DNA from: Candidatus Tayloriibacteriota bacterium
Lineage (GTDB): Bacteria > Patescibacteriota > Minisyncoccia > Phycocordibacterales > HO2-43-120
NCBI GenBank assembly: GCA_039934295.1
Contig: JBDTMN010000002.1
Location: 26,725 to 90,724, forward strand
Length of the DNA stretch: 64,000 nt
Direction: 5' to 3'
Shown here one piece after another: positions 4,779 to 63,937 of this stretch. Under the pieces are notes generated by a model, which worked only from the letters and a program-made list of their open reading frames with translations, was not told the origin of the DNA and did no database searches. The position numbers and the translations under genes were made by a program. Position 1 is the stretch's first letter. The number at the start of each line of letters is the position of its first letter.

Positions 4779-4960
4779 GCTCGTCCTATCCCCGTAGCAG
4801 AGCTAGCGGGGTATTCGGCGAGCGCATTTTATTTTGAAAACCCCTCGGTTTTCAACGCTCGCCGACTCGCTGCTTTCCGCCACGGGGAAACTCCCGTTTC
4901 CCCGACCCCCTTCCCAAACTCCGCATTCATCCCCGCAGCAGAGCTGTGGGGAATTCTGCG
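4779..4960 (-). repeat. GC-rich hairpin-rich intergenic repeat, diverged inverted copy (copy 3 of family at 12411 and 21496)
   Basis: The reverse complement shares the blocks ctgcKgcggggatgaatg and cgaataccccgc...cggggataggacgag with the other two copies. The central long hairpin is replaced by a different hairpin (cggggaaactcccgtttccccg). GC is far above the surrounding sequence. Confidence 0.55.
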
Positions 4961-4966
4961 GATTTA

Positions 4967-6511
4967 TTAAACGAATCCGGGAAAATAGTCAGTTTTGATT
5001 TTAGAGCGTTTGACACCGATGCCTCGGAGAATTGCTTTGTACGAAGTTACCATCGCCTGCGGTCCTGAAATATAAAACTTTCGCTCCAGAAAATCAGGGA
5101 CTTCTCGTTTAACGGTTTGAGCAAAAAGCGCGGACAGCGCTTCCGGAGACAAGTGAACGCCGTCGTCGCTATATGAATAGACTGTTTTAATCCCGAGCTC
5201 CTTCTTTGCCCTTTCAAAAATATCCGAATATACGGCATCATTCGGAGTTTTATTGAAATACAAAAGAGTGATAGGGCGCGCCTCGCGGTTGTGAAGAAGA
5301 TACTGAATCATACTCCGAAACGGAGTGACCCCTATTCCCCCAGCGATGAAGACAAGCTTTTTATTTTTATTCTTTGGCAAGGTAAAATCGCCCGCGATCT
5401 CGGAAGCCACGATAGACTTCCCTGTGCTCATCGCGAGCATGGCTTTTTTGAATGTGCTTCCCGGTTCATAGAATTTCACCCCGATGGAAAGTTCTCGCTC
5501 GGTCGGAGAGGACGCAAGAGTAAAAAAACGCCTCACGCTCCGGCTATCGGGATGCGAGTGCGCAAGTGTCCACTCCATGTACTGCCCCGGCCGAAACGAA
5601 ACCGGCCTGTCTGACGCAAAAGCAAATTCATACACGTCTCGGGAAAGCCGAACTACTCGTTTCAGTTTCAAATTGAGCTTATATTTCGGGCTGACGAGAT
5701 ACGAAAATACATTTCCCACCAGAAGCGCGAGCTCGGGCGTGAAGTAGAAAGAACCGATGTTCACGTTCGGCAAAAACAGCAGGCCGACGAGAGCTCCGTA
5801 GAGTACACGCAATAATTTCGAGGGCGGAGTAGTCATCGGTTCCGTGAGCATAACCGTTGCAAAGAAAAACGTGGGAGCATAGAGCAACGCCTGACTTAAA
5901 GAACGCACGACATCAAGCCCTCTTCCAAAATAATAAAAGGCAATCCCCACAGTAAACACCCCTATGAAAGCAAACCACAAATCAAATCGTCGTATTTTCC
6001 GAACAATGAGAAGCCCCCCAATGAGCACAAACGGGACCATAGGAAGCGTCCCTATCCACCAACTAGCTGACAAGCCTAAAACAACGCTAGTAGCCGCCAC
6101 ACCGAAAGCGACGGGATTGAAAACATGCTTCTTTCGAATGGCTAAAATATATTTTGAGGCTATGGCAACTGCGGACGCCCAAAATGCGAGCGGAAGATAT
6201 TGCATATCGATCCAAAGAGTAGGGGGACTTATAATCAAAGCAAGAATGAGCGCGGTTATCCACGTTGATTCAGGATTCGAAGGAACCTCGAACATCCGAG
6301 CAAAAATTTTGTTCACAATCCAAGAAACAGAAAAAATAAAAGCCACCGAGAAAACAAGAAAAATAGGGTTTACCGGAAACACGCCAAAAAATCCCATGAT
6401 GAAGGCGACGAGCAAAAGAAAAGCAAGCTCGTACACCACGAGTCGGTACATCGTTATCCTATTTAATATTTTGTCGATTGCTTTTATCATCATGTATTTA
6501 AAAACCGGCAA
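4967..6511 (-). CDS. Membrane oxidoreductase: polytopic N-terminal domain (RnfD/NqrB-like by inference) fused to FNR-like FAD/NAD(P)H-binding domain
   Basis: The C-terminal half has an FAD-binding motif (RRFFTLASSP), an NAD-binding GGIGVTPFRSM motif and a C-terminal YxSGP-like segment (FYISGPQAM), as in the ferredoxin-NADP reductase family. The N-terminal 290 aa has about 8 TM helices with an HVFNPVAFG segment reminiscent of the RnfD/NqrB FNPA region. It overlaps the apbE end by 14 nt, so the two are co-transcribed. Confidence 0.7.
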   Translation of the reverse strand: MPVFKYMMIKAIDKILNRITMYRLVVYELAFLLLVAFIMGFFGVFPVNPIFLVFSVAFIFSVSWIVNKIFARMFEVPSNPESTWITALILALIISPPTLWIDMQYLPLAFWASAVAIASKYILAIRKKHVFNPVAFGVAATSVVLGLSASWWIGTLPMVPFVLIGGLLIVRKIRRFDLWFAFIGVFTVGIAFYYFGRGLDVVRSLSQALLYAPTFFFATVMLTEPMTTPPSKLLRVLYGALVGLLFLPNVNIGSFYFTPELALLVGNVFSYLVSPKYKLNLKLKRVVRLSRDVYEFAFASDRPVSFRPGQYMEWTLAHSHPDSRSVRRFFTLASSPTERELSIGVKFYEPGSTFKKAMLAMSTGKSIVASEIAGDFTLPKNKNKKLVFIAGGIGVTPFRSMIQYLLHNREARPITLLYFNKTPNDAVYSDIFERAKKELGIKTVYSYSDDGVHLSPEALSALFAQTVKREVPDFLERKFYISGPQAMVTSYKAILRGIGVKRSKIKTDYFPGFV

Positions 6512-15693: not shown

Positions 15694-15863
15694 AGAAATT
15701 CTAGATCCTTCGTCAAAGATTCTCTTCGAGCCTGAAGCTTAGAGCCGAATGGTCTCGGGGACTTCTTCTCTTTGAGCCGGACAAAGACACTGTCTTTCAA
15801 GACCCTGAGGATCTTTCAGACCCGAACGGGATGAACCTTCGGCCTCGCGGAGGTAAAGAAGTG

Positions 15864-15936
15864 CTGGGGAGCTAGGGGTCGAACCTAGAGTCTTCTGCTC
15901 CAAAGGCAGACGTGTTACCAATTACACCACTCCCCA
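15864..15936 (-). tRNA. tRNA-Gln (anticodon UUG)
   Basis: The reverse complement TGGGGAGTGGTGTAATTGGTAACACGTCTGCCTTTGGAGCAGAAGACTCTAGGTTCGACCCCTAGCTCCCCAG folds as a cloverleaf. Acceptor is 7 bp with a U1-A72 pair, D-stem GTGT/ACAC, anticodon loop CTTTGGA and T-loop TTCGACC. No encoded CCA. Confidence 0.85.
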
Positions 15937-51667: not shown

Positions 51668-51809
51668 CCGTAATCATTCGTTCTTCTCATCACAACAGAG
51701 CCCCAAGGTTTCGGCCTCGGGGTTTTTCTTTTTTTGTCATTTATCCAAAAAATGCTATATTTCTTAGATTGGAAATTAGATATTAGTAATTAGAAATTTC
51801 TGCATGTTT

Positions 51810-51881
51810 GGCCCTATCGTCTATCGGCTAGGACGGAGCCTTCTCAAGGCTCAAAGCAGGGTTCGACTCCCTGTAGGGTCA
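51810..51881 (+). tRNA. tRNA-Glu (anticodon CUC)
   Basis: GGCCCTATCGTCTATCGGCTAGGACGGAGCCTTCTCAAGGCTCAAAGCAGGGTTCGACTCCCTGTAGGGTCA. Acceptor is 7 bp including one G-U. D-loop has GG. Anticodon loop TTCTCAA. T-loop TTCGACT. Discriminator A. Manual fold. Confidence 0.7.
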
Positions 51882-52424
51882 CAGATTTTTGCGTAGCATA
51901 AAAAGCTGTGACACTAAGCAGAGCTGGGGGCTCTGCGTCAGGGAGTCGAAGCCCGATTGAGCATTTTTTTTGAGTTTGCTTCAAACGAGGAAAAAATCCA
52001 ATCGGGGTACTGAACATGTAATGTTCGACTCCCTGTAGGGTCACAAAAATAATGAGGACAATGCGGAGCATTGGCTGAGTATAATTTTGTAGATTCTACA
52101 GGGAGTCGAAAGACGGAGCGGGCACCCGTTCACCAGAACGGGTCGCGAGTCGGGGTCGCGGCTTTTGTGAGACGGCGGTCGAACAAAAAGCTGTGACCGA
52201 CTCCCTGTAGGGTCACAAATTTTTTTAAAGCGAGCAAACTGCTTTGCTCGTGAAAAATTTGTGAAGGCACAGGCCTAGTTCGCGAGTACGCGAACAGCCG
52301 AGCCGGGGTCGGCAAGTACTTACATTTTTTGTGATTTTAAGAAACAAAAAATTTAGTAACTTGTGACCACATAAACTTTGAGTGCGTAGCACACAATTAT
52401 GACCGACTCCCTGTAGGGTCACAG
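51861..52424 (+). repeat. Array of four direct copies (plus two inverted partial copies) of the tRNA-Glu 3' end (T-loop plus acceptor 3' strand)
   Basis: Direct copies (g/a)(t/c)cgactccctgtagggtcaca at 51861-51883 (in the tRNA), 52023-52045, 52197-52219 and 52401-52423. Inverted partial copies agggagtcgaa at 51941-51951 and 52101-52111. Spacings 162, 174 and 204 nt. Confidence 0.7.
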
Positions 52425-52432
52425 ATTTTCGC

Positions 52433-55400
52433 TCACAATAAGTTCTGTAACATCTCGATTATCCATCGCAAAATTTTATACAACGTGTTCCAAAACTCTT
52501 GCAAAATGCCCATGAAAGATGCGCTGAGTGCCTTCAAGACCCCTGCAGTAACATTGACGGGAGAAACCGAGTCGGTATTTGTTTTGATACTTACGCTTAC
52601 GCCCGGAGCTTCCTGGCCAGGATGATTGAAGCGGTAGCCGGCGGGAATATTGTCAGCGGTTTGAGCAGCGTTTGTTGGAGAATATGGCGGCCAGGAGAGT
52701 GAGCCGAACCATGCGGGTTTGGAGGAAAGGTAGAGAGAATTTGGCAGAGTCTGTCCTCCCGTCAAGGCTTCATTTGCAGGAATGCCTTTGCCGAAAATAT
52801 AGTTCTGTTTCCTGATGAACGTGAGTCCGACATCCATATCAAGTTCCTGGAATCCTTCTGATCTCGGCCAAAGACCTATGGCAGTTCCCTGTGCCGGAAG
52901 TGGGTCTAGGTATCCTCCGGTAAGAGAAACAGCATTGCCGGAAAAAGCAGTCGTATGCATGCCTATTCGAGCGCCATTGCTCCATTGCGTTGTAATCGCC
53001 GGACAATTTCCTCCAAAAGCCTGGCAGTATCCTAGCAGTCGCGAAGTTCCGGCGCTCAAGGTTACGACACCGCTTGAACCATCAGATGCGCGACTAGTGA
53101 GGGTACCTTTGATGCCGAGCCCGGCGACAGGGCTCCAGTCTAGCCAATATATGCCTTGGCTCGGTAGGGCAAATCCCGTGGAGGCTCCATTGCCGATGTT
53201 CGGCTGGCCGAGACTATATGCACCTACGACATTACCGATGGCACTAAAATTCCTGGAAAAACGCTTGAAGGCAAGAAAGCCCGATGTCCAGTTCCTAAAG
53301 AACATTTCTTCCGAATCGCTTCCAAAATAGCCGTCTGATTTGAATTCGCCTCCCTGCAAATAATTTCCTTCATATAGATTGTAGCTATTATGAGAACCAT
53401 GGTTGACGTTCACACTGCCGTCAGGCATATAATTGTAGGCGAAAACATTACCTACGGAACTAAAGTTTATTTCAAGAAGCGGGAATGATTTGTAAACGAT
53501 GTTATCTTCAAACAGACATCCGGTATTTCCTCCGCTCAAAAATCCAGAGCCATTTGTACCGCCATGGTTGAGCTCGTCGAGGAAGGAATGTCTGACCTCG
53601 CACCCCAAGCTATCATTAAAACTTATCGAGTAATTACTCATGTGTCTGACTTTGACATTCTTGACCCATGAAGCGTATGTGCCTCCAGCGCTTATTCCAA
53701 ATTGAGTGGTGGCATTTGACCCGTCAATGGTCAGGTCTTCAATACCGACATACCTTGAGGTTGCATAATTCGGCGCAGTGATGCTTGGCTGTCTCCCTGA
53801 AAAATCAACGATAAGAGGCGGGGAGAAGCTAAGGGCGCTACCTGACTTCCCAGTCAGAACCACAATCTGGGATTGGATATTTTCGTAGCCCGAGACTGAT
53901 ATAGTCGGTAGAGATGTTTTATTTTTTCCGCTTATTTTGACTATATTTCCAACTGTATATGGTGATGAGTCAGAAACGCTGACTTGAGTGCTTCCCTTCG
54001 AAGCGCCTGAAAGGACCGGCACGGCAGAAACATTGTAAAATTCAGATCCGCGTATATTCACACAGACGCTTGGAACATAACAATCAAGAATAGTACTCGC
54101 TCCTGCTCCGCGAAGCGTTATATTACTCTTAAAAGATGCGACGATCTGGGTCAAGATCTTATAGGTTCCCGCGGGCAAATAAACAATATCATTTGCCACC
54201 GCGGCGGTGATGGCACTATTTATGGCTGGAGCGGCATCGGTAGCTCCAGTTTTATCCGCATTGTAGGGCGCTTGGGTGACATCAATGAGATGAGTGCGAT
54301 TTGTCGGAATCCCTCCAGTAACGCCTGCGGTAACTCCAGGAATCCAGTTGGCCAAACGGTTTGAAGGTATCAAAGCAGATGATCCGCCTGGAGTGGTTGC
54401 TGCAACACCTGCCGACGGAGGCGAGACATTTCCGCCGTTATCTGTAGCCGTCACTGTGTATGTATACGTCGTACCTGGGGAGACGGTGAAGTCCTGGTAG
54501 TACTGCTGTTCCGTATCATGATACGGAGCTTGGTACGGTATGTGCGCAATAGTCCCTATCTGGGTTCCATTCCTATATATAGTATACGAAGTAATGGTTC
54601 CGGTTGTTGGCGTTGAGCGCAACCAGATAAGGCTGATTTGGTCTGGCGCCACGCCGGCAGCCGATACATAGGTCGGCGCGGGCACGCCACTTACTGAAGA
54701 TAAGTTGAATGTTGCTGTAACTGTCGTATTTGAAGCTACAGTGACTACACATGTCCCCGTTCCACTACATCCTCCTCCAGACCAACCGGTGAAGGTAGAG
54801 CCCGAAGTAGCTACAGCGGTAAGAGTTGAAACTGTGCCAGAGGTGAGGCCTGAAGCCGAACAGGTACTGCCACAACTCACAGATCCTCCTGTGGAAGTCA
54901 CCGTACCTCCTCCCGTGCCTGCCTTGGTGATCGTAAGAGTAAATGTTGTTGGCGTCGCTACTCCACTAGTAGTAACCGATAAAGCGGCTGACGGAACGGA
55001 GTTATTGGGAGCTCCCGCGTTGTCATAGGATGATATAGTGTATGAATATGTGGTGCTTGCCACAAGACCAGAGTTGGCGAAAGAGGTACCGGATGTTACC
55101 GTGCCCACTTGAGCCCCTCCTCTCCATACTTTGTATCCCGCCACGTTTCCTCCCCCAGTATCAGTCGAAGCTGTCCATGAAATAGTTGCTCCTGTTTGGG
55201 TTACGTTTGATGACGAAAGATTTGTAGGTACGGACGGAGCTTGTGTGTCTGAAGGAGAGCCGGAACCACTACCATCTGTAGCGGTAACACTTCTAAATCC
55301 GTAGTCAGTATCCGCGCCTCCATATGCCCTGAGCCAGCCTATGCCGGGTGCACCACTGGCAAAGGTGCTGTCAGTAGTCGTAAGTATGGAAACATTGTTG

Positions 55401-57745
55401 ACGTAAAGGGTGATGGTATTGCCGATCATCGTGCCTTTGATGGTACTGTTGTCAGTAAGAAATGGGGCTCCCTGTGCGGCACTCAAATTGGCCAATACCG
55501 TGAAGTTACCTAACGCACCATTCCAGCGAACGATAGAATAATATTGAGTACCAGTTGGACTGAGACCGTAGGTCAACTCATAGCCAGTATTGGAATGGGC
55601 TGAGATACTGCTACGTAGACGAATCTCGAGTTCCTCAACAGCACTTCCTGTAGGATTCACCGTATGCACAACAGCAGTGACTGTTTGATCTGGACCCCAA
55701 GTGCCGGAGAGTATAGCGGTAGAATCATCATAGCCACCTGAGGGCGGCTGTGTGCCATATACCAATCCATTTGCCATACGCATATCAGTCCAGTCTAGAC
55801 CTGTCGCCTTGCCGTTGATCCAGTTGCCGGATTCTGATAGAGGATTTTCTGCGCCACCGGAGAAAGTTGTGACATAGGTACGGGGATTGCCTGCTGAAAC
55901 CGCCTGCGTGGTTGCGCTCGCGGAAGATGATTGGGCCGATGGATTCCCTGCCGCGTCTTGCGCTAAGACTGTATATGAATATGAGGTGTTTGCGGTAAGA
56001 CCAGTACTCGAATACGAATTGGTGCTTGGTGTAGCTACTTGTGTGCCGTTTCTAAATACTTTGTATCCTGTAACCCCTACATTGTCTGTTGAAGCAGTCC
56101 AGGATAGGTTTATCTGGCTCGAAGATACCGCGGAAGCCGAAAGGTTCGTAGGGGTCGAAGGTGCGGTGGTGTCTGGGACAACAGAGATAGTCTCAGAGCA
56201 GGAGGCAGTGGTTCCTCCGTTTGATCCGGTACAACTCCAGAGACGCGCAGTCGAGGTGTCAGTAACATCTGCGAATGTGCCCGATGTGCACTGGTTGAGA
56301 GTGGTTGAACACAGACCGTTGACCGCTGTCCCCCCTCCTCCCCCCACTGCATTCAATAGCTCGGTGATTTCTTGAGCAGAGAGTGCTCGGCTGTAGATGC
56401 GGACTTCGTCAATAGAGCCGTTAAAGACCCAGTTCGGACCGAAGATGTTGTTTATAATGACAGATTTACTATTTGCATCAGTGGTCCCACTAGCGGCGGC
56501 TTCAGATTTTTTGACACCGTCCACCCAGATGCTGACTTTTGAACCGTCATACATACCGACAAGATGGTGCCAATTTGAATCAGTTATGGTTGGAGCCGCT
56601 CCGGATGAGTACTTCACCCCTCCGCTTGTGATTTGAAATTGTGGATTGAACGCATAGTTGTCAGAATACAAGCTCCATTCTATAGTTGCATAAGGACTTC
56701 CTTTTGTGACCAGATATTTCAATTGACCCACTTCATTATTACTCACTTGCTTAATCCATACTGAAACAGTCATGGCGTTTAACCCATCGAGTGCGTTAAT
56801 GTCTTTCGCATCGACATAATCATCCACCCCGTCAAACTTCAATCCCTGCCCGATCTTTCCCGTGGTAAATGTCGGTCCGTTTATGAGTGTGCCGGTATTT
56901 GATCCCACGGAGTCGTTAGCGTTACCGTCGAAGGCCCAGTAGCTTATGAGTTTGCCAACGGAGGTCGGTGGGGGCGGAGTAGGAGTGACTCCTCCACCTG
57001 TGGAGTTGTATATGTCGGTGATTTCTTGAGCAGAGAGTGCTCGGCTGTAGATGCGGACTTCGTCAATAGAGCCGTTAAAGACCCAGTTCGGACCGAAGAT
57101 GTTGTTTATAATGACAGATTTACTATTTGCATCAGTGGTCCCACTAGCGGCGGCTTCAGATTTTTTGACACCGTCCACCCAGATGCTGACTTTTGAACCG
57201 TCATACATACCGACAAGATGGTGCCAATTTGAATCAGTTATGGTTGGAGCCGCTCCGGATGAGTACTTCACCCCTCCGCTTGTGATTTGAAATTGTGGAT
57301 TGAACGCATAGTTGTCAGAATACAAGCTCCATTCTATAGTTGCATAAGGACTTCCTTTTGTGACCAGATATTTCAATTGACCCACTTCATTATTACTCAC
57401 TTGCTTAATCCATACTGAAACAGTCATGGCGTTTAACCCATCGAGTGCGTTAATGTCTTTCGCATCGACATAATCATCCACCCCGTCAAACTTCAATCCC
57501 TGCCCGATCTTTCCCGTGGTAAATGTCGGTCCGTTTATGAGTGTGCCGGTATTTGATCCCACGGAGTCGTTAGCGTTACCGTCGAAGGCCCAGTAGCTTA
57601 TGAGGTTACTTGAGGGAATAGCTTGAGCGCGCTGGGAAGAAGTGTAGACGTTATTAATTTGCTTGTTGAGTGTGGAAAAACTTAAAACTGCTACTAATAA
57701 AAGAAACGCTGTGGCAATAATGCCAAGAATGTGTTTTTTATACAT
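52433..57745 (-). CDS. Giant secreted/anchored surface protein (1770 aa): two identical LamG/ConA-like lectin domains, fibronectin-III-like domains, Thr/Ser/Gly-rich linkers, C-terminal right-handed beta-helix-like region
   Basis: N-terminal signal anchor. Duplicated about 196-aa segment LISYWAFDGNANDSVGSNTGTLINGPTFTTGKIGQGLKFDGVDDYVDAKD... (LamG-like). FN3-like PSTPTNLSASAVSSSQINLSWTASTDNVGVTGYKVFRNG. A later region with NxxG / parallel beta-helix-like repeats. Confidence 0.7.
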   Translation of the reverse strand: MYKKHILGIIATAFLLLVAVLSFSTLNKQINNVYTSSQRAQAIPSSNLISYWAFDGNANDSVGSNTGTLINGPTFTTGKIGQGLKFDGVDDYVDAKDINALDGLNAMTVSVWIKQVSNNEVGQLKYLVTKGSPYATIEWSLYSDNYAFNPQFQITSGGVKYSSGAAPTITDSNWHHLVGMYDGSKVSIWVDGVKKSEAAASGTTDANSKSVIINNIFGPNWVFNGSIDEVRIYSRALSAQEITDIYNSTGGGVTPTPPPPTSVGKLISYWAFDGNANDSVGSNTGTLINGPTFTTGKIGQGLKFDGVDDYVDAKDINALDGLNAMTVSVWIKQVSNNEVGQLKYLVTKGSPYATIEWSLYSDNYAFNPQFQITSGGVKYSSGAAPTITDSNWHHLVGMYDGSKVSIWVDGVKKSEAAASGTTDANSKSVIINNIFGPNWVFNGSIDEVRIYSRALSAQEITELLNAVGGGGGTAVNGLCSTTLNQCTSGTFADVTDTSTARLWSCTGSNGGTTASCSETISVVPDTTAPSTPTNLSASAVSSSQINLSWTASTDNVGVTGYKVFRNGTQVATPSTNSYSSTGLTANTSYSYTVLAQDAAGNPSAQSSSASATTQAVSAGNPRTYVTTFSGGAENPLSESGNWINGKATGLDWTDMRMANGLVYGTQPPSGGYDDSTAILSGTWGPDQTVTAVVHTVNPTGSAVEELEIRLRSSISAHSNTGYELTYGLSPTGTQYYSIVRWNGALGNFTVLANLSAAQGAPFLTDNSTIKGTMIGNTITLYVNNVSILTTTDSTFASGAPGIGWLRAYGGADTDYGFRSVTATDGSGSGSPSDTQAPSVPTNLSSSNVTQTGATISWTASTDTGGGNVAGYKVWRGGAQVGTVTSGTSFANSGLVASTTYSYTISSYDNAGAPNNSVPSAALSVTTSGVATPTTFTLTITKAGTGGGTVTSTGGSVSCGSTCSASGLTSGTVSTLTAVATSGSTFTGWSGGGCSGTGTCVVTVASNTTVTATFNLSSVSGVPAPTYVSAAGVAPDQISLIWLRSTPTTGTITSYTIYRNGTQIGTIAHIPYQAPYHDTEQQYYQDFTVSPGTTYTYTVTATDNGGNVSPPSAGVAATTPGGSSALIPSNRLANWIPGVTAGVTGGIPTNRTHLIDVTQAPYNADKTGATDAAPAINSAITAAVANDIVYLPAGTYKILTQIVASFKSNITLRGAGASTILDCYVPSVCVNIRGSEFYNVSAVPVLSGASKGSTQVSVSDSSPYTVGNIVKISGKNKTSLPTISVSGYENIQSQIVVLTGKSGSALSFSPPLIVDFSGRQPSITAPNYATSRYVGIEDLTIDGSNATTQFGISAGGTYASWVKNVKVRHMSNYSISFNDSLGCEVRHSFLDELNHGGTNGSGFLSGGNTGCLFEDNIVYKSFPLLEINFSSVGNVFAYNYMPDGSVNVNHGSHNSYNLYEGNYLQGGEFKSDGYFGSDSEEMFFRNWTSGFLAFKRFSRNFSAIGNVVGAYSLGQPNIGNGASTGFALPSQGIYWLDWSPVAGLGIKGTLTSRASDGSSGVVTLSAGTSRLLGYCQAFGGNCPAITTQWSNGARIGMHTTAFSGNAVSLTGGYLDPLPAQGTAIGLWPRSEGFQELDMDVGLTFIRKQNYIFGKGIPANEALTGGQTLPNSLYLSSKPAWFGSLSWPPYSPTNAAQTADNIPAGYRFNHPGQEAPGVSVSIKTNTDSVSPVNVTAGVLKALSASFMGILQEFWNTLYKILRWIIEMLQNLL
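56361..57604. repeat. Apparently perfect 590-bp tandem duplication (56361-56950 and 57015-57604) with a 64-nt linker, inside the giant gene
   Basis: The ORF track shows two identical 79-aa + strand ORFs 654 nt apart. My read of the nucleotides shows identity from tcggtgatttcttgagcagag to cccagtagcttatgag in both blocks. Confidence 0.8.
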
Positions 57746-57916
57746 GCGATAATAATACAGAAAAAATTTTTCTTAGACTACAAAGATATCCACAGATACA
57801 TTATACGCAATAGATTACGCATGTTTGTCAAAAGTAATTCGCCGGATGAAATTTCATTCTATCTAAAAAAAATTCCGGAACTTTCCTAAATTAAAGCAGA
57901 GAAAGATGCTTTTTCA

Positions 57917-60793
57917 CTACCGAATAATCCCTACATATTTAAGCCAACCGAGGAAAGCACCCGCAACGCCTGCCCAATAGGAAGTCGACTGGGTTGTCGG
58001 TGCCGCGGTTATGGTAATCTCACCAACTTTGTATCGGCTGTTCCCTGCATCAGACACCCCAGATCCGGGAGTGAAGACGAGGCGTTCAGAACCGACGTAC
58101 ATACCAACGAGAACGTCGTATGATCCAACTGGGATATCATCGATGGATTTGGATGATGGAGTAGACATGGTTCCTGCTGACCACTGATCGGTCGGAGGAT
58201 TTGGGAAGAAGCCGAAGCTAACTACTTTGCTCCGATCAACTTTGTTGTTCAGGAATACGAATACCGACCAGCTTTGCTTTCCTAGAGAAAGTCTGTACGG
58301 TCCTCCAGACCAGTTCAGAGTGTAATTGAGGGTTTGGCCGACTTGGATGCTCGAAGGAGCATTCCAAGGAAGAACGGTGGGTTGAGTTTGAACCTGTTGA
58401 ATAGCTGGAACTGAAACTGCCAAATCTCTAGAGACTGAAGCGCCTGCACTGTTTCTGCACGTGAGCGTATAGTTGGCATTTGAAGTCAACACTCCTGTAT
58501 TGATAGCCTCGCTAGCTCTGTATGAAGCGTTGCTGAAGTTTGGACCATTCAGAGTACAGCCCGTTGCATTTGTCGCCGACCATACCAATGTCGTAGATCG
58601 GACATCGTTGGTGATAGGTTGTGAAGTTCTAAAATCAGTTATCGAAGGAGCAGGTGCATTAGTAGTGTTTGGAGCCGCCGTAACCGTAATCTCCCCGACC
58701 TTGTATCGACTGCTACCTGCATCAGATACTCCGGACCCTGGAGCAAAGACCAGACGTTCCGAGCCGACGTACATACCAACAAGGACGTCATATGAACCGG
58801 GAGGAATGTCAGAAGTAGACTTGGATGATGGAGTAGACATGGTTCCTGCAGGCCACTGCGCCGTTGGTGGATTTGGGAAGAAGCCAAAGTTAACTTCTTT
58901 GCTCCGATCAGCTTTGTTGCGCAAGAATACGAATACCGACCAGTTTTGCTTTGCTAGAGAAAGTCTGTACGGTCCTCCAGACCAATTCAAAGTATAGTTC
59001 AGAGTCTGACCAGCTTGGATAGTAGAAGGCGCATTCCAAGGGAGGACGGTGGGGGTTCCGGCTGCTGGGTTGGTAGTAACGGGAGGAAGTGTCGTAGTTG
59101 GAGGAGGATTGGTTGTTGCGGGGGGATTGGCGGGAACAGGTGTTACCGGAGGGTTTGAAGGGGTTACTGGTGTAACCGTTGTTGGCACATACCTAAAGAC
59201 TACCTTTGATACTTGGCCAGCAGTTATATTCACTGGCACCGAACAAAAACCAAGAGAGCAGGTAACATTGGTTTTTGAATATGATGATTGACTGCCGATG
59301 AGACACTCTGTCCCCTGATTGTTGAGGCCTCCGCCTGCAAATGTGCACGAAGCCGAGTATTCATCATATCCAAAAAGATCGGTGGCGTATGCGGTGTGTT
59401 GACCTACTGACGGATTAAATTGCCCTGCTCCTGTGCCGGAGCCTAGAGAAACTGTATACGGGTTTGCTGCTCCTACGGAAGAAATACTGTCCACGGTCGC
59501 CTGTGTTCCGGAAATAGGATTGAGATCGGCATCTACTCGCTTGATGATGAGGTTGGGAGAAAATGTGGACACGGTCCCAGCCCCAGAACCGGTACTTATA
59601 AAACTTGCCCTACTTGCACCTACAAATGGCGCAGTTGAAGGAGAAACTCCGCTCTGCTGACCATTGTAGACTATCACGTCAGTCGAACCGCTGAACCTAA
59701 CCCCGTCGGAAGAAATCTTGACTTGGTATTTTGTGCCGTTCGTAGAACCAACCATGTCGTTTGGTAGATCTATAGAAAGAAACCATTGGGCCGACGTAGA
59801 TTGGTTGTCGATGGTAAGAGTCTTTGTGTAGTTTTTACCGGTAATATTGACATAATATCTAGCGATGGAAGGGTCTATGATAATAGCGTCTCGCGGCCAC
59901 ACATTATACGGTGCAGTTGGGGAGAAATTTTGTATGTAGACCTTAGATAGAGTACACGAAGATGTATTGGTCTCTGACGGACACGTACGCACAGCATACT
60001 GATAATCCCTCACTACCTTGTGGGATGTCTGATACAGTCTCATCGATGAGAGGTTCGGACTAACTATCTTCAAGGTAGATGGCGGGCTCCAAGTCTTTTC
60101 CCCATCTATGGAATAACTCACTTGAATAGACGAGCCGACGACGGCATTGGCGGAAACAGTAAATGGAGTGGCGGGAACCGAAGTGAAATCCACTTGTCCA
60201 TTGCCTATAGATCCACCTATAGTTCCAGAAAATATTCTGGTAGTGCTTAGATTGCTCAATGTCACCGTATTGGTCGGATAGACAACGCGGACTGAAGAAG
60301 TTTTCACTGTAGAAAGAGCTCCCAGTAAAATATACATCTGTTCACCGCGATAGGCGGTTTTGGTCGATGCTGCAAAAGCTTCAAGCACGATGAACTCTGG
60401 AGCTTTCGGTGTGACCTGTGTAGCTGTTTGTCCGCCTTGTACACCACCAGTGGCTGTAGAGGTGACTTTGTCCAAATATCGCTCTTCAACCCAACCCGTG
60501 CCTGCATAATCAAAGTCAACCGCCCATGACCAAGTACCGAGACTATTGGACAGTGCTGGAACATTCGGTCGTATTGTACCGACAAAGTCTTTTTTGGCAG
60601 TGTTTCCATTTGTTAGTTCAACAGAAACGTTGGAATTGATCTTAACGCGATCACCTGTCTTAAACTTGGTTGAAATCTGAGAAGCTGTCGGTGTAACCCC
60701 TTGAGCATGAATCGGGTTAGCTACTATAAAGGTGAAGGCCAGTACAATCGCCGACAAAGCTAAGAAACGTGCATATGTTTTCATAAAAATCAA
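57917..60793 (-). CDS. Giant secreted surface protein (958 aa) with internal 130-aa repeats and a Pro/Thr-rich linker
   Basis: Signal peptide MIFMKTYARFLALSAIVLAFTFIVANPIHA, linker PVTPSNPPVTPVPANPPATTNPPPTTTLPPVTTNP, two diverged copies of TVLPWNAPS(T/S)IQ(A/V)GQTLNYTLNWSGGPYRLSL... and a hydrophobic C-terminus. Confidence 0.65.
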   Translation of the reverse strand: MIFMKTYARFLALSAIVLAFTFIVANPIHAQGVTPTASQISTKFKTGDRVKINSNVSVELTNGNTAKKDFVGTIRPNVPALSNSLGTWSWAVDFDYAGTGWVEERYLDKVTSTATGGVQGGQTATQVTPKAPEFIVLEAFAASTKTAYRGEQMYILLGALSTVKTSSVRVVYPTNTVTLSNLSTTRIFSGTIGGSIGNGQVDFTSVPATPFTVSANAVVGSSIQVSYSIDGEKTWSPPSTLKIVSPNLSSMRLYQTSHKVVRDYQYAVRTCPSETNTSSCTLSKVYIQNFSPTAPYNVWPRDAIIIDPSIARYYVNITGKNYTKTLTIDNQSTSAQWFLSIDLPNDMVGSTNGTKYQVKISSDGVRFSGSTDVIVYNGQQSGVSPSTAPFVGASRASFISTGSGAGTVSTFSPNLIIKRVDADLNPISGTQATVDSISSVGAANPYTVSLGSGTGAGQFNPSVGQHTAYATDLFGYDEYSASCTFAGGGLNNQGTECLIGSQSSYSKTNVTCSLGFCSVPVNITAGQVSKVVFRYVPTTVTPVTPSNPPVTPVPANPPATTNPPPTTTLPPVTTNPAAGTPTVLPWNAPSTIQAGQTLNYTLNWSGGPYRLSLAKQNWSVFVFLRNKADRSKEVNFGFFPNPPTAQWPAGTMSTPSSKSTSDIPPGSYDVLVGMYVGSERLVFAPGSGVSDAGSSRYKVGEITVTAAPNTTNAPAPSITDFRTSQPITNDVRSTTLVWSATNATGCTLNGPNFSNASYRASEAINTGVLTSNANYTLTCRNSAGASVSRDLAVSVPAIQQVQTQPTVLPWNAPSSIQVGQTLNYTLNWSGGPYRLSLGKQSWSVFVFLNNKVDRSKVVSFGFFPNPPTDQWSAGTMSTPSSKSIDDIPVGSYDVLVGMYVGSERLVFTPGSGVSDAGNSRYKVGEITITAAPTTQSTSYWAGVAGAFLGWLKYVGIIR

Positions 60794-61597: not shown

Positions 61598-62023
61598 TTA
61601 AAACTGCGCTATTTCATTCGAAGAAACGATACTCCAAATGCCTCCGGTTTCTTTTGCCAGCGTCTCCACATTGGAATAGGTATTTTGGAATCGAGAACGG
61701 GTCCGAATGAGCAAATCCACTCCCTGGGGCATTATTGAAAAAATCGTGCATTTGTGCTCGGTCTCCGTTTCCGAAAGTGAAATCTCATCTCCTCCAGATG
61801 ACGGCGAATATGCGCTATTTGTTGATAATTTTAAAAGCGCGATGTCTCTGCAACTTTTCGCAAATGACGAGCTCATCTCCTTAAATTCAGAATCTAAAAC
61901 ATTGAACCTCGCCGAGAATCCCCCGAGATTCAGCGTGAAAACAATGGTCGTCATAATAAGAGAGATGAGAATGACCGAAATCAGCGCGATGAACCCTTTT
62001 TCTTTTTTAGATGAACACGTCAT
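61598..62023 (-). CDS. Prepilin-like / pseudopilin protein
   Basis: N-terminus KKEKG|FIALISVILISLIM has a prepilin-type cleavage site G-F and a hydrophobic helix, but no Glu5. 4-nt overlap with the upstream gene. Confidence 0.55.
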   Translation of the reverse strand: MTCSSKKEKGFIALISVILISLIMTTIVFTLNLGGFSARFNVLDSEFKEMSSSFAKSCRDIALLKLSTNSAYSPSSGGDEISLSETETEHKCTIFSIMPQGVDLLIRTRSRFQNTYSNVETLAKETGGIWSIVSSNEIAQF

Positions 62024-62538
62024 TGAATCAATTTGATTAACTCATATACTTCTCCTTTAATCGTAAGGAAAACTTTCACGAATTCTTTTCCGTTCGCGCT
62101 CTCGTGTTCAAATGATAGAGCGTCAATGGAAACAAAATCGCTATTCAATTTATTTTCGGGTGATGCTCCTCTTCTTAGCATGATACTTTTTCCCGCTGGG
62201 TCAAAACTCAACGTTAAAGAAATTCCGGACCCGCGCAGAGAGAGCGTTGACCCAGAACTACCCAATGCGGGCACTGATACAGACGTAACTCCGGCAAACA
62301 AGGAATCAATCTTTTTGAGCAAGAAATTTGTCTCTTCAATGAGCAGGACTTTTTCGCTCATGGCATTTTCGTTTGCAATAACCTGATATGCAGTCTGAAG
62401 AAAACTTCCCATGATAAGAGCAAGAAGGGCAATGTAAATGAGAGACTCGATGAGGGTGAAGCCGCGGGAATATGTAACATGTAACTTGTAACATGAAACA
62501 TGGAAAAATCTTTTTTGCATTTTTGATTTCATGGTCAA
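62020..62538 (-). CDS. Type IV pilin-like protein with long leader
   Basis: SRG|FTLIESLIYIALLALIMG is the canonical prepilin N-methylation/cleavage motif with Glu5. The leader is 20-26 aa depending on which Met is used. Confidence 0.7.
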   Translation of the reverse strand: MTMKSKMQKRFFHVSCYKLHVTYSRGFTLIESLIYIALLALIMGSFLQTAYQVIANENAMSEKVLLIEETNFLLKKIDSLFAGVTSVSVPALGSSGSTLSLRGSGISLTLSFDPAGKSIMLRRGASPENKLNSDFVSIDALSFEHESANGKEFVKVFLTIKGEVYELIKLIQ

Positions 62539-62560
62539 ATGTTAAATGTTACATGCTACA
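62471..62560. repeat. Inverted pair of heptamer GTAACA-type arrays. One arm is inside the pilin leader-coding region, the other in its 5' UTR
   Basis: atgtaacatgtaacttgtaacatgaaacat (62471-62500) and aatgttaaatgttacatgctacatgc (62537-62562) are mutually reverse-complementary heptamer runs flanking the start codon region. Confidence 0.5.
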
Positions 62561-62575
62561 TGCTTCCTGTCATTC

Positions 62576-63937
62576 CTAGTTTCCTTTTACAAATATTATT
62601 TTGTTTGGAGTTGCAACATACATTGTATTCCCCTCGCAGTCGAGGCTTATGCCGTCTCCATTCAAGTTGATGTCTCCAATTTTTACAATGTTGCTCGGGT
62701 CTTTCACATTCCATATTTGAAATTCTTCCGCCCCAACTAGTGTTGCAAGAAATGCCTTGTCGCTTCGAACAAAAATGTCATTCACACTCTTCCCTATTTT
62801 TTCCGACCCAACCGAGCTCTCAGATTTTGTATCAATAATGTGCAATTCATGATTAGACGCGATCGTTCCTCCATAAGTTCTTCCGAGATAAACCGTATCC
62901 CCCAATGGATAAAGACTCTTCCCGCTCTGGGTTAGAAATTGAGTCAATGTAATACTTCCGATTTCCTTGATATCACTGGGATCATTCACATCCAAAATTC
63001 TCATTTGTTTACTGCTGGCGGTAGCTAGATACGCCTTCGCTCCGACAACATAGATGTCGTTTACTACATTCCCTATCTCAAAGCTTCCGAGCAATGAGGG
63101 ACTAAGAGGGTCAGAGACATCTATAACGGAGAATTCAGGGTAGCTCGGTGAATTATTTGTTCCGAGAAACACTTTTTTATTCGAATAGAAAATGCTACTC
63201 GAAGTTCTATTGTCATTTATTCCTACAATGGAAGGCAACTTCAATTCTTTTTTAAGCAATGGATTAGAAGAATCAGACACATCAATAATCTGAAGTTGCG
63301 CGTTTATGCTTCCATTTGCAACATACGCGTAATCTCCTGCTACATGCAGAGCGTTGAGACCTGGGCCCGTGGTTATACTCGATACTATTTGAATATCTGA
63401 ATGATTAGAAATATCCACAATGTGAAAATCGGGTTGAAGCGGAGTGCTTGAATTCGTCGTCACATATATTTTATTATTGAGAACATCAATTTGGGTGATG
63501 TCAGTGAGACTTGAAATAGACGCAATTTCGCTTGGATTACTCCAATCATCGGTTAGAAACATGTCGCAGGTATCCGTTCCGAGAGCGTTTTCTGAATTCG
63601 TCGCAATTCTTGATAGTACCACTTGGTGTTTTCCACCATCCCAACTGACAGCGCTTTCTACAGATTTCGCAAAATTCGTTATCGGTTCAACAGTAATTGT
63701 TTTTTCAAAAATCCCGTCGGCAACCAAAGTGTTTTGCAGAGAATAGAAATCTTCGAGTAGAAAGATTTCGAGTCCTGATTTTGCTTTTGCGAGAGCGATT
63801 AGCGACAGTTCCGCCTGCAAAATCATGCTCCTGCTCCCGAAAGAAACCAAAATCACGGCAGTTATAACCAAAATACCCACTGAAAAAGCAACAAGTATTT
63901 CAAGCGTGCTCATGCCTTGTGAAGATTGTTCGTTCAT
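62576..63937 (-). CDS. Pilin-like N-terminus fused to an LVIVD-repeat beta-propeller (putative minor pilin / adhesin)
   Basis: QG|MSTLEILVAFSVGILVI is a prepilin motif with Glu5. At least four LVIVD-type repeats follow (YAYVANGSINAQLQIIDVSDSSNP, KVFLGTNNSPSYPEFSVIDVSDPLSP, KAYLATASSKQMRILDVNDPSDI, KAFLATLVGAEEFQIWNVKDPSNI). Confidence 0.65.
   Translation of the reverse strand: MNEQSSQGMSTLEILVAFSVGILVITAVILVSFGSRSMILQAELSLIALAKAKSGLEIFLLEDFYSLQNTLVADGIFEKTITVEPITNFAKSVESAVSWDGGKHQVVLSRIATNSENALGTDTCDMFLTDDWSNPSEIASISSLTDITQIDVLNNKIYVTTNSSTPLQPDFHIVDISNHSDIQIVSSITTGPGLNALHVAGDYAYVANGSINAQLQIIDVSDSSNPLLKKELKLPSIVGINDNRTSSSIFYSNKKVFLGTNNSPSYPEFSVIDVSDPLSPSLLGSFEIGNVVNDIYVVGAKAYLATASSKQMRILDVNDPSDIKEIGSITLTQFLTQSGKSLYPLGDTVYLGRTYGGTIASNHELHIIDTKSESSVGSEKIGKSVNDIFVRSDKAFLATLVGAEEFQIWNVKDPSNIVKIGDINLNGDGISLDCEGNTMYVATPNKIIFVKGN

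Follow-up and report, generated by a model that had tools for sequence, protein, structure and literature searches.

The locus

The DNA analysed here, 64,000 nt of a contig (JBDTMN010000002.1, assembly GCA_039934295.1) from a Candidatus Tayloriibacteriota bacterium and called the window throughout, carries a tRNA-Glu(CTC) gene that is followed on the same strand by three further copies of its own 3' end, and the DNA between these copies is made up of short, structured modules that recur behind tRNA genes in other genomes. The tRNA gene, at 51810-51881/2, is the single tRNA at the site (ARAGORN; Rfam tRNA, 52.5 bits). Upstream of the array lie housekeeping genes (L21, RmuC, YqeY, 3-methyladenine glycosylase, alpha/beta hydrolase); downstream, on the opposite strand, come genes for a 1770-aa LamG/fn3 protein, whose stop codon (52433) copy 4 abuts, for a 958-aa protein, and then for pilin-like proteins. 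In what follows, L-numbers denote the loci compared with the window (L073-L076 are metagenome loci), A and B are two module families, and R1 is a covariance model of the family B core. The features of the array are:

51734 to 51761, + strand: candidate sigma-70-like promoter for the tRNA (TTGTCA, spacing of 16, TATATT, with TG), a consensus match only, which does not imply function
51810 to 51881, + strand: tRNA-Glu(CTC), with no encoded CCA; the discriminator A is followed by CA
51861 to 51883, + strand: copy 1 (X1), comprising T-loop, 3' T-stem strand, 3' acceptor strand, discriminator and CA; the reference for all copies
51884 to 52022, + strand: unit 1, a type A module (best match the module in L011, 89% over 62 nt)
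52023 to 52045, + strand: copy 2, the exact 23 nt of the tRNA 3' end, from G53 of the T arm
52046 to 52197, + strand: unit 2, a type B module (73 nt match the first unit of L074 at 92% identity)
52198 to 52217, + strand: copy 3, 20 nt identical to the tRNA, from C56
52218 to 52375, + strand: unit 3, a B-like module (R1 match at 52256-52375 weak: 16 bits, E ~0.05-0.16)
52376 to 52403, + strand: short remnant before copy 4, with a GCGTAGC motif (52383-52396, similar to 51890-51903) and then ATGACC
52404 to 52429, + strand: copy 4, 26 nt, made up of 20 nt of the tRNA end from C56 and the tRNA's own trailer GATTTT

An exact 19-mer, GACTCCCTGTAGGGTCACA, occurs at 51865, 52027, 52199 and 52405, each time on the + strand. 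The number of copies expected by chance is zero: dinucleotide-preserving shuffles of the window gave no match, even with 3 mismatches allowed. The repeated block runs from the 3' half of the T-loop through the 3' strands of T-stem and acceptor stem to the discriminator and takes in at least two trailer bases (CA); identity to the tRNA begins at G53-G57 of the T-loop and extends at least 2 nt beyond the discriminator. After the discriminator, the tRNA-Glu, tRNA-Ser and most tRNA-Val genes of these genomes have CA, not CCA, and for Glu and Ser this CA is part of the repeated block, while some tRNA-Glu genes have a T there (GGGTCAT). Upstream and downstream copies can differ, for example GGGTCAT versus GGGTCACA, or CCCCG versus CCCTG.

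Inverted copies lie between the direct ones. The segment CAGGGAGTCGAA is found at 51939-51950 and 52099-52110, the latter within CTACAGGGAGTCGAA, which starts at 52096, and a third such segment, at 52253-52273, is the complement of copy 3 together with its trailer. A preliminary description of the locus had recognized a tRNA-Glu with direct and inverted repeats of its 3' end, and this is borne out by the four exact 19-mers. In detail it needs correction: the full 23-mer, which it placed at three further sites, is repeated only in copy 2, copies 3 and 4 starting 3 nt later, and of the inverted copies it saw the two reading agggagtcgaa, 1-2 nt away from the 51941 and 52101 it gave, and missed the third. 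It had also considered that the repeats might belong to additional complete tRNA genes. Copies 2-4 have no 5' acceptor strand, D arm or anticodon arm, and ARAGORN and Rfam call one tRNA only, none of these copies being called as an extra tRNA or pseudogene.

The long stems that had been proposed from these repeats are recovered by folding. The 548 nt after the tRNA fold at -243.9 kcal/mol, compared with -155.8 for shuffles (z = -14.7), and the opposite strand of the same array folds at -212.1 kcal/mol (z = -11.5). The array holds no credible open reading frame (ORF), only short ORFs that run through the repeats, and there is no gene between the window copies. A search for the 15-mer with up to 3 mismatches gives no further copy anywhere else in the window, with none past 52423, so that the copy beyond 60793 suggested earlier as the border of an island is absent from the window. 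The window's other tRNA gene, tRNA-Gln(TTG) at 15863-15936 on the - strand, has neither a downstream 3'-end copy nor a module.

A conserved fold between the copies

Counted with their copies, the three units have periods of 162, 172 and 206 nt and are arranged head to tail. They are not similar to one another, no pair among them reaching threshold; each is much closer to a unit in another genome, and the genomes that match units 1 and 2 (L011 and L074) are not syntenic with the window.

Unit 1 opens with a hairpin with a GCGTAGC loop (51885-51907), followed by an imperfect antisense of the acceptor end, GTGACACTA (51908-51916), a small hairpin (51920-51936), the T-arm antisense CAGGGAGTCGAA and a long hairpin (51951-52007). 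It closes with the linker GTACTG and a TGTAA-loop hairpin (52012-52026) that ends at the C56 equivalent. The same architecture is found behind tRNA-Ser (L029) and tRNA-Val (L021), and together with the units of L008, L011 and L020 these modules make up family A. Its general layout is an acceptor-end antisense, a small hairpin, a 12-nt T-loop/T-stem antisense and AAG, then a long hairpin, GTACYG and a short hairpin ending at the C56 equivalent, after which the copy begins; the loop of this last hairpin is usually TGTAA and its stem covaries. The GCGTAGC-loop hairpin recurs directly 3' of tRNA ends or copies, both in the window (51885-51907, 52383-52396) and in L008, L010, L011, L018, L020 and L023.

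Unit 2 belongs to family B. Copy 2 plus its trailer pairs with the antisense (arms 52024-52053 and 52081-52110), and the core that follows forms a three-way junction, a1-GAAAGACGGAGC-P2-GAGTCGG-P3(GGTCGC...GTGACC), which R1 matches at 52101-52205 with 59 bits (E = 2e-13). In unit 3 a hairpin, GCGAGCAAACTGCTTTGCTCG (52230-52250), which is identical in L020 and present with substitutions in L074, is followed by the antisense of the copy 3 end and trailer (52252-52264) and by a divergent B core that ends in GTGACC and then CACATAAAC, a short degenerate copy of the tRNA end. The order of parts in unit 3 is that of the second unit of L074, a non-syntenic locus in which a u2-like and then a u3-like unit stand directly behind the tRNA. 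The array in L074 has no u1, meaning that unit 1 was either gained in the lineage of the window or lost in that of L074.

The layout of family B is a1-GAAAGMCGGAGC-[P2 hairpin]-GAGKCRG-GGTCGY-[P3 hairpin]-RTGACC, and the tRNA copy then starts at once, from C56 or G57. P2 and P3 were recovered by RNAalifold; the outer helix P1, in which a1 pairs with the first bases of the tRNA copy, was added to give a three-way junction of 26 pairs. Over these 26 pairs 93.8% of positions can pair, compared with 27-35% when the partners are slid, and compensatory changes occur at 15 pairs; none of 500 shuffles reached the observed values. On the 19 distinct R1 matches the corresponding figures are 93.1% and 19 compensatory pairs, for an alignment that was fitted to the model and hence leans towards it. 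The M of the first junction covaries perfectly with the K of the second (A-U or C-G). P3 has one invariant G.U pair, and G.U pairs are in excess (34 G.U versus 7 A.C).

Run over 347 kb of loci and the window, R1 gives 22 matches, and apart from an inverted copy in L002 and a weak match in L008 (E ~0.1-0.4) these lie in tRNA flanks. There is no match in another 99 kb of Patescibacteria DNA, nor in the rest of the 64-kb window. All convincing modules lie downstream of the tRNA and on its strand, except the inverted copy in L002. Neither family matches anything in Rfam 15 other than tRNA and chance-level hits, at E-value limits of 10 for the window and 1 for five related loci and with ribozymes, rtT and CRISPR repeats included.

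Two further points concern the fold. A hammerhead-like reading of the three-way junction was discarded on inspection: a GAAA linker is present, but neither CUGANGA nor a UH site. P2 and P3 contain symmetric CGAG/CGAG motifs (for example window 52117-52146 and L004 4588-4693) that would form tandem G.A pairs and may be a protein-binding, kink-turn-like feature. The L002 locus, home of the inverted B-like module (4887-4965), has after its tRNA-Glu a ~60-nt direct repeat that flanks ~330 nt (4780-5570).

Modules matched to their tRNA

The module families are found behind tRNA-Glu(CTC/TTC), tRNA-Ser(CGA) and tRNA-Val(GAC), and both the terminal direct copy and the antisense segment vary with the neighbouring tRNA. 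In L006 a B core stands behind tRNA-Ser(CGA) and ends in GTGACC followed by AAATCCCTCCCTTTCCGCA, the 3' end of tRNA-Ser from the same T-loop position; its a1 reads GGATTT, complementary to AAATCC, in place of GAGTC. The type A module behind tRNA-Ser in L029 has the antisense AAGAGATTTGAA, a perfect 12-mer, and the one behind tRNA-Val in L021 has CAGGATTTGAA, with one G.U pair, the cognate 3' copy being present in both cases. A B-like core is found behind tRNA-Val in L029. The sense and antisense segments lie ~100 nt apart and are re-tuned together, and this argues for selection on their pairing. Such paired re-tuning is not required by known attP arms.

The antisense can pair with either the upstream or the downstream copy. 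In L074 the antisense CTACGGGGAGTCG pairs perfectly with the CCCCG of that genome's own tRNA, and with the downstream copy, which has CCCTG, it pairs through G.U; more generally the upstream copy plus trailer often gives the better fit (L021, L074, L075, window u2 and u3), although this is not decisive.

Occurrence among related genomes, empty sites and cargo

The 19-mer is found at 37 GTDB loci, all from metagenome-assembled genomes (MAGs), of which 35 are labelled Patescibacteria/CPR (candidate phyla radiation), one 'Bacteroidia' and one only 'bacterium'. At least 15 of the 37 have a second copy 120-260 nt downstream, the same modules, or both. A second copy of the 3' end of tRNA-Glu (CTC or TTC) is often present, for example in L004, L006, L021, L023, L024, L025, L028, L032, L037 and L073-L076, the DNA between copies is alignable across genomes, and the spacing is tightly similar (120-165 nt).

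Across the loci the genes upstream are conserved and those downstream vary. Sites without modules are also found. The comparison with relatives proposed in the preliminary description does yield a bare tRNA-Glu(CTC), in L034, which shares the L21-RmuC-YqeY neighbourhood with the window; bare tRNA-Glu genes occur as well in L036 (RmuC upstream) and in L012, where RmuC and L21 are present but downstream of the tRNA. In L005 and L009 the tRNA-Glu(TTC) that they share with L006 and L028 has no module behind it. The tRNA-Ser module of L006 is missing from its close relative L028, in which the tRNA is identical and the adjoining gene is shared. The loci reached through homologues of the glycosylase have neither tRNA-Glu nor modules and served as a specificity control only. 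The flanking hydrolase is on record only from a Candidatus Taylorbacteria MAG, with no homologue on record, and a look-up of the 1770-aa protein found nothing.

At three loci the copies enclose protein-coding DNA, in each case co-oriented with the tRNA. In L028 two exactly matching B units stand behind the tRNA, separated by 3 kb that encode an Ldh_2 dehydrogenase and a UvrD-like helicase, while in L037 and L030 the cargo between copies (~0.64 kb) is a single ORF of ~0.6 kb (weakly HEPN-like in L037, a small ORF in L030). At other loci accessory genes stand just past the arrays: Fic, an AAA/zeta-like kinase, an N6/N4 DNA methylase, the antitoxin SocA/Panacea and NYN. Behind the B module of tRNA-Glu(TTC), L006 has Fic and the AAA/zeta-like kinase where L028 has Ldh_2 and the UvrD-like helicase, and in both a conserved 196-aa gene follows these accessory genes.

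No gene that might move the modules is seen beside them. Pfam scans of 19 ORFs from the flanks and cargo of related loci and of the window's adjacent 1770-aa ORF contain no integrase or transposase, a loose tyrosine-recombinase motif is absent from 61 window ORFs and 352 locus ORFs, and no tnpA or tnpB ORF was found in the flanks, the only trace being a sub-threshold Cas12f1-like zinc-ribbon in an ORF of L002 (17.4 bits, cut-off 26.3). In IMG/VR there is no real match for the tRNA-end 19-mer, for the gapped B-core pattern or for two type A/u3 motifs. Thirty-two IMG/VR matches of a 15-mer were set aside as chance matches, and a phage or plasmid origin was likewise dropped, BLAST searches with the array having given no match in phage and plasmid collections.

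Taken together, these data show a family of structured, retargetable and dispensable modules at tRNA T-loop/3' ends, at sites where accessory genes vary.

Comparison with known systems

The array shares several traits with integrative elements that use tRNA or tmRNA genes and with their tandem accretion: direct repeats of the 3' end bound the units, identity starts in the T-loop, and the intact gene stands at one end of the stack (PMC9897764, PMC5704250). Recombinase-less units (cis-mobilizable elements) are also known to pile up there, with empty sites and variable cargo in relatives (PMC9897764, PMC5704250). The differences are equally clear, since the units here are ~50-200 nt long and mostly gene-free, with no integrase near ~20 arrays, and known attP arms have neither a conserved, covarying three-way junction nor a target antisense that is re-tuned for each tRNA species.

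A second likeness is to the integron attC site and the attP(+) hairpin of CTX phage, where a direct copy of the core at the unit boundaries and an inverted copy tens of nucleotides away allow one strand to rebuild the duplex target, structure is kept more than sequence, and tandem arrays form at one chromosomal site (PMC3458562, PMC5027507). The promoterless, co-oriented cargo followed by a structured site in L028 and L037 also resembles integron cassettes (PMC3458562, PMC5027507). However, the core here is GTTCGAC, whose C at position 4 misfits the R' consensus GTTRRRY; attC is a single imperfect hairpin, and the fold here is a three-way junction whose junction sequences are conserved; it is a tRNA gene that is targeted; and most of the 'cassettes' are empty. 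There is no integron intI/attI or Xer-type gene adjacent to the array, where the upstream neighbours are the alpha/beta hydrolase and the DNA glycosylase, and no recombinase motif in the window.

The tyrT locus of Escherichia coli, reportedly described by Egan and Landy in 1978 and by Bosl and Kersten in 1991, is said to have head-to-tail distal units of ~180 nt (178 bp) that contain the last ~19 nt of the tRNA, for which unequal crossing-over was proposed; this distal region is reportedly transcribed with the tRNA and processed into a small RNA (rtT RNA). The arrangement of a tRNA gene and head-to-tail units with its last ~19 nt is the same here. The tyrT units are near-identical tandem duplicates, whereas those of the window are mutually unrelated and fall into two families shared across genomes and tRNA species, with no Rfam match to rtT.

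In IS200/IS605 elements and in REP/RAYT systems a hairpin lies beside the junction, a short 5' segment pairs with sequence 3' of the hairpin, and non-autonomous copies are mobilised in trans. The modules share the junction hairpin, the guide-like pairing and, as in REP clusters, alternating direct and inverted copies. In contrast, no Y1/HUH transposase or TnpB gene is seen, the pairing is 5-17 bp rather than 4 nt, and R1 gives matches in tRNA flanks and nothing elsewhere in the 64-kb window or in 99 kb of other loci, whereas REP/BIME-like palindromes are dispersed in many copies between genes. The modules also come with a 20-nt copy of the target, which transposons of this type are not known to make.

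Two kinds of repeat array were considered and rejected. The period of 162-206 nt, the heterogeneous units and the lack of an adjacent cas gene do not fit a CRISPR array, and a TIGR-Tas array differs in geometry and would come with a Tas (Nop-domain) gene, which is not present; TIGR units consist of 8-12-nt repeats and ~9-nt spacers beside a Nop-domain gene (PMC12045711).

How the arrays may have arisen

The distribution of the modules, which relatives can lack, suggests mobility, and their recurrence behind tRNA-Glu, tRNA-Ser and tRNA-Val genes of many related bacteria points to a small mobile element, or a tRNA-linked RNA, that seems not to have been described before and sits at a hotspot of gene insertion. 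Our favoured explanation, to which we give a probability of roughly 0.45, takes the stack of three to four tRNA-end modules, which are short (~50-200 nt), non-coding and strongly structured, to consist of non-autonomous units that insert at the T-loop/3' end of the tRNA, being acted on in trans. Each module consists of X (the tRNA 3' segment from the T-loop) with its trailer, the antisense of X, and a three-way-junction core of type A or B, and closes with a hairpin whose last base is the T-loop C56, the next X copy following immediately. Insertion by site-specific recombination at the T-loop/3' end would regenerate the tRNA 3' end. The stack would grow as further modules enter at one tRNA, each new unit coming to lie next to the tRNA, and the same sites also accept small gene cargo. 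The recombinase would be encoded elsewhere. The pairing of antisense with sense suggests that it acts on a folded single strand, rebuilding a duplex copy of the target as integron attC and CTX-phage attP do. The order seen here, a direct copy, a short loop, an inverted copy, a body and a further direct copy, is the trace that folded single-strand integration leaves, as in those two systems (PMC3458562), and non-autonomous units are known to form stacks at a single att site (PMC5704250).

Several points weigh against this explanation. There is no recombinase next to any of the ~20 arrays, so that the enzyme is hypothetical, and neither an excised circle, a junction read or an autonomous parent nor an IMG/VR, phage or plasmid match was seen. 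Loss of units by recombination between copies explains presence and absence as well as gain does, and the occupied and empty tRNA-Ser sites give no clean boundaries when compared. In L028 the cargo has the same complete ~165-nt unit on either side, which fits homologous (Campbell-type) recombination or duplication better than a site-specific event at a short core. Finally, the conserved G.U pair, the G.U excess and the stabler fold of the tRNA-sense strand suit an RNA function at least equally well, and the terminators between tRNA and module were also counted as keeping a small-RNA explanation alive.

According to this main alternative, raised in the preliminary description as a small-RNA-producing array and in our view unlikely though by no means negligible, the modules are genes for tRNA-linked small RNAs: they would be transcribed with or just after the tRNA and each released as a structured RNA, a three-way junction of tRNA-like topology, the tRNA-identical 3' end acting as a signal to the 3'-processing machinery and the antisense switching between the upstream and the downstream copy, while the genes spread and multiply by recombination. 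Covariation of this kind is typical of functional RNAs, the junctions (GAAAGMCGGAGC, GAGKCRG) being conserved and the stems variable, and the invariant G.U pair, the ratio of 34 G.U to 7 A.C and the difference between -243.9 and -212.1 kcal/mol for the two strands all favour such RNAs, as does the placement of the convincing modules downstream of the tRNA and on its strand, bar the inverted copy in L002. The L074 antisense, perfect against its own tRNA and paired by G.U with the downstream copy, would suit a switch, and a copy plus its T-run is terminator-like. However, a terminator-like hairpin with a U-run usually stands between tRNA and module (L006, L013, L032, L037), so that the two would be co-transcribed only by read-through; close relatives can do without the modules, which match no Rfam family; and RNA function alone leaves the copy-flanked protein-coding cargo of L028, L030 and L037 unexplained.

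A more specific proposal, unlikely but with a realistic chance of being right, is that the A and B modules are the cis sites or a guide-like component of an undescribed Patescibacteria system for gene capture and insertion that uses tRNA genes as its platform. A folded strand (DNA or RNA) would present the sense and antisense T-loop/3' end around the junction, a trans-acting enzyme would insert cassettes at the T-loop, and changes of ~20 plus 6-12 nt would retarget the module (Glu, Ser, Val). Such a system would be integron-like or bridge-RNA-like, with programmable tRNA targets.

The three other explanations fit less well than either trans-acting insertion or small RNAs. The preliminary description had read the array as the scars of an integrase at a hotspot, with decayed elements between the copies and the two giant surface-protein genes (52433-60793) as island cargo. 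In its general form this would mean that conventional integrase islands or prophages integrated repeatedly at tRNA-Glu and then lost nearly all their DNA, leaving functionless attL/attR remnants, which we regard as improbable. The textbook footprint of such elements is indeed a set of direct repeats of a tRNA 3' end beginning in the T-loop (PMC9897764; Williams, 2002, as cited there), variation is seen in the downstream flank and conservation in the upstream one, and tandem accretion of integrated elements is known (PMC5704250). The hotspot itself stands: there are empty sites (L034, L012, L036, L005, L009) and 0.6-3 kb of variable genes between copies (L028, L030, L037). What does not stand is a classical integrase island. 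No integrase or remnant of one is found in the flanks of the window array or of any related array, and there is no phage or plasmid match; the 140-200-nt intervals, far from being decayed, are modules conserved across distant genomes and behind three tRNA species and covary as helices; the antisense segment tracks the tRNA species; and unit sizes are tightly similar, with 120-165 nt between copies. The surface-protein genes in turn lack a distal copy, lie on the opposite strand and have a G+C content (42-51%) not clearly set apart from that of the flanks (39-49%).

Local tandem duplication by unequal crossing-over between the tRNA-end copies, as for the tyrT repeats, is still harder to accept. 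It would account for the head-to-tail order of units that are alike in length (162, 172 and 206 nt) and all close with the last ~20 nt of the tRNA, for the identity of the copy 4 trailer with that of copy 1 and for the exact whole-unit duplication in L028, but the mutual dissimilarity of the window units, each with its closest counterpart in another genome, and the assignment of units 1 and 2 to different families largely refute it for the window.

The independent support for the sequence, two Logan contigs from the same population (L070, L071), reaches only to ~52019, inside unit 1, where they could end through population heterogeneity or a repeat-induced assembly break. An artefact, i.e., a chimeric or collapsed join in the MAG at a repeated k-mer, would fit this end point and is hardly credible, as the order of a u2-like and then a u3-like unit is also found in the unrelated contig L074, comparable arrays occur in many independent assemblies, and the exact repeats of only 20-26 nt are below typical assembly k-mers.

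Repeats of tRNA 3' ends are normally read as passive scars of an integrase, and in the present case what lies between them is a fold that is conserved, shows covariation and is re-tuned for each tRNA. The modules are widespread in a huge and poorly understood bacterial radiation with tiny genomes, and they mark sites where genes of the toxin and defence type come and go without a visible recombinase. Should they serve as recombination substrates, they would reveal how accessory genes pass between these episymbionts and would provide a small, retargetable insertion site; if they are RNAs, they would be a new and abundant class of tRNA-linked RNA. The covariance model R1 makes the question directly testable in existing metagenomes and metatranscriptomes.

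Neighbouring surface-protein genes

Both large genes downstream of the array contain internal duplications. In the 1770-aa LamG/fn3 protein (52433-57745, - strand) a segment of ~225 aa occurs twice, almost identical, near the N-terminus, and its 958-aa neighbour (57917-60793, - strand) has a long internal duplication near the C-terminus. Just past them, at 61598-63937 on the - strand, are three consecutive ORFs with hydrophobic N-terminal segments; an ORF at 62020-62538 has the type-IV-pilin-like motif GFTLIESL.

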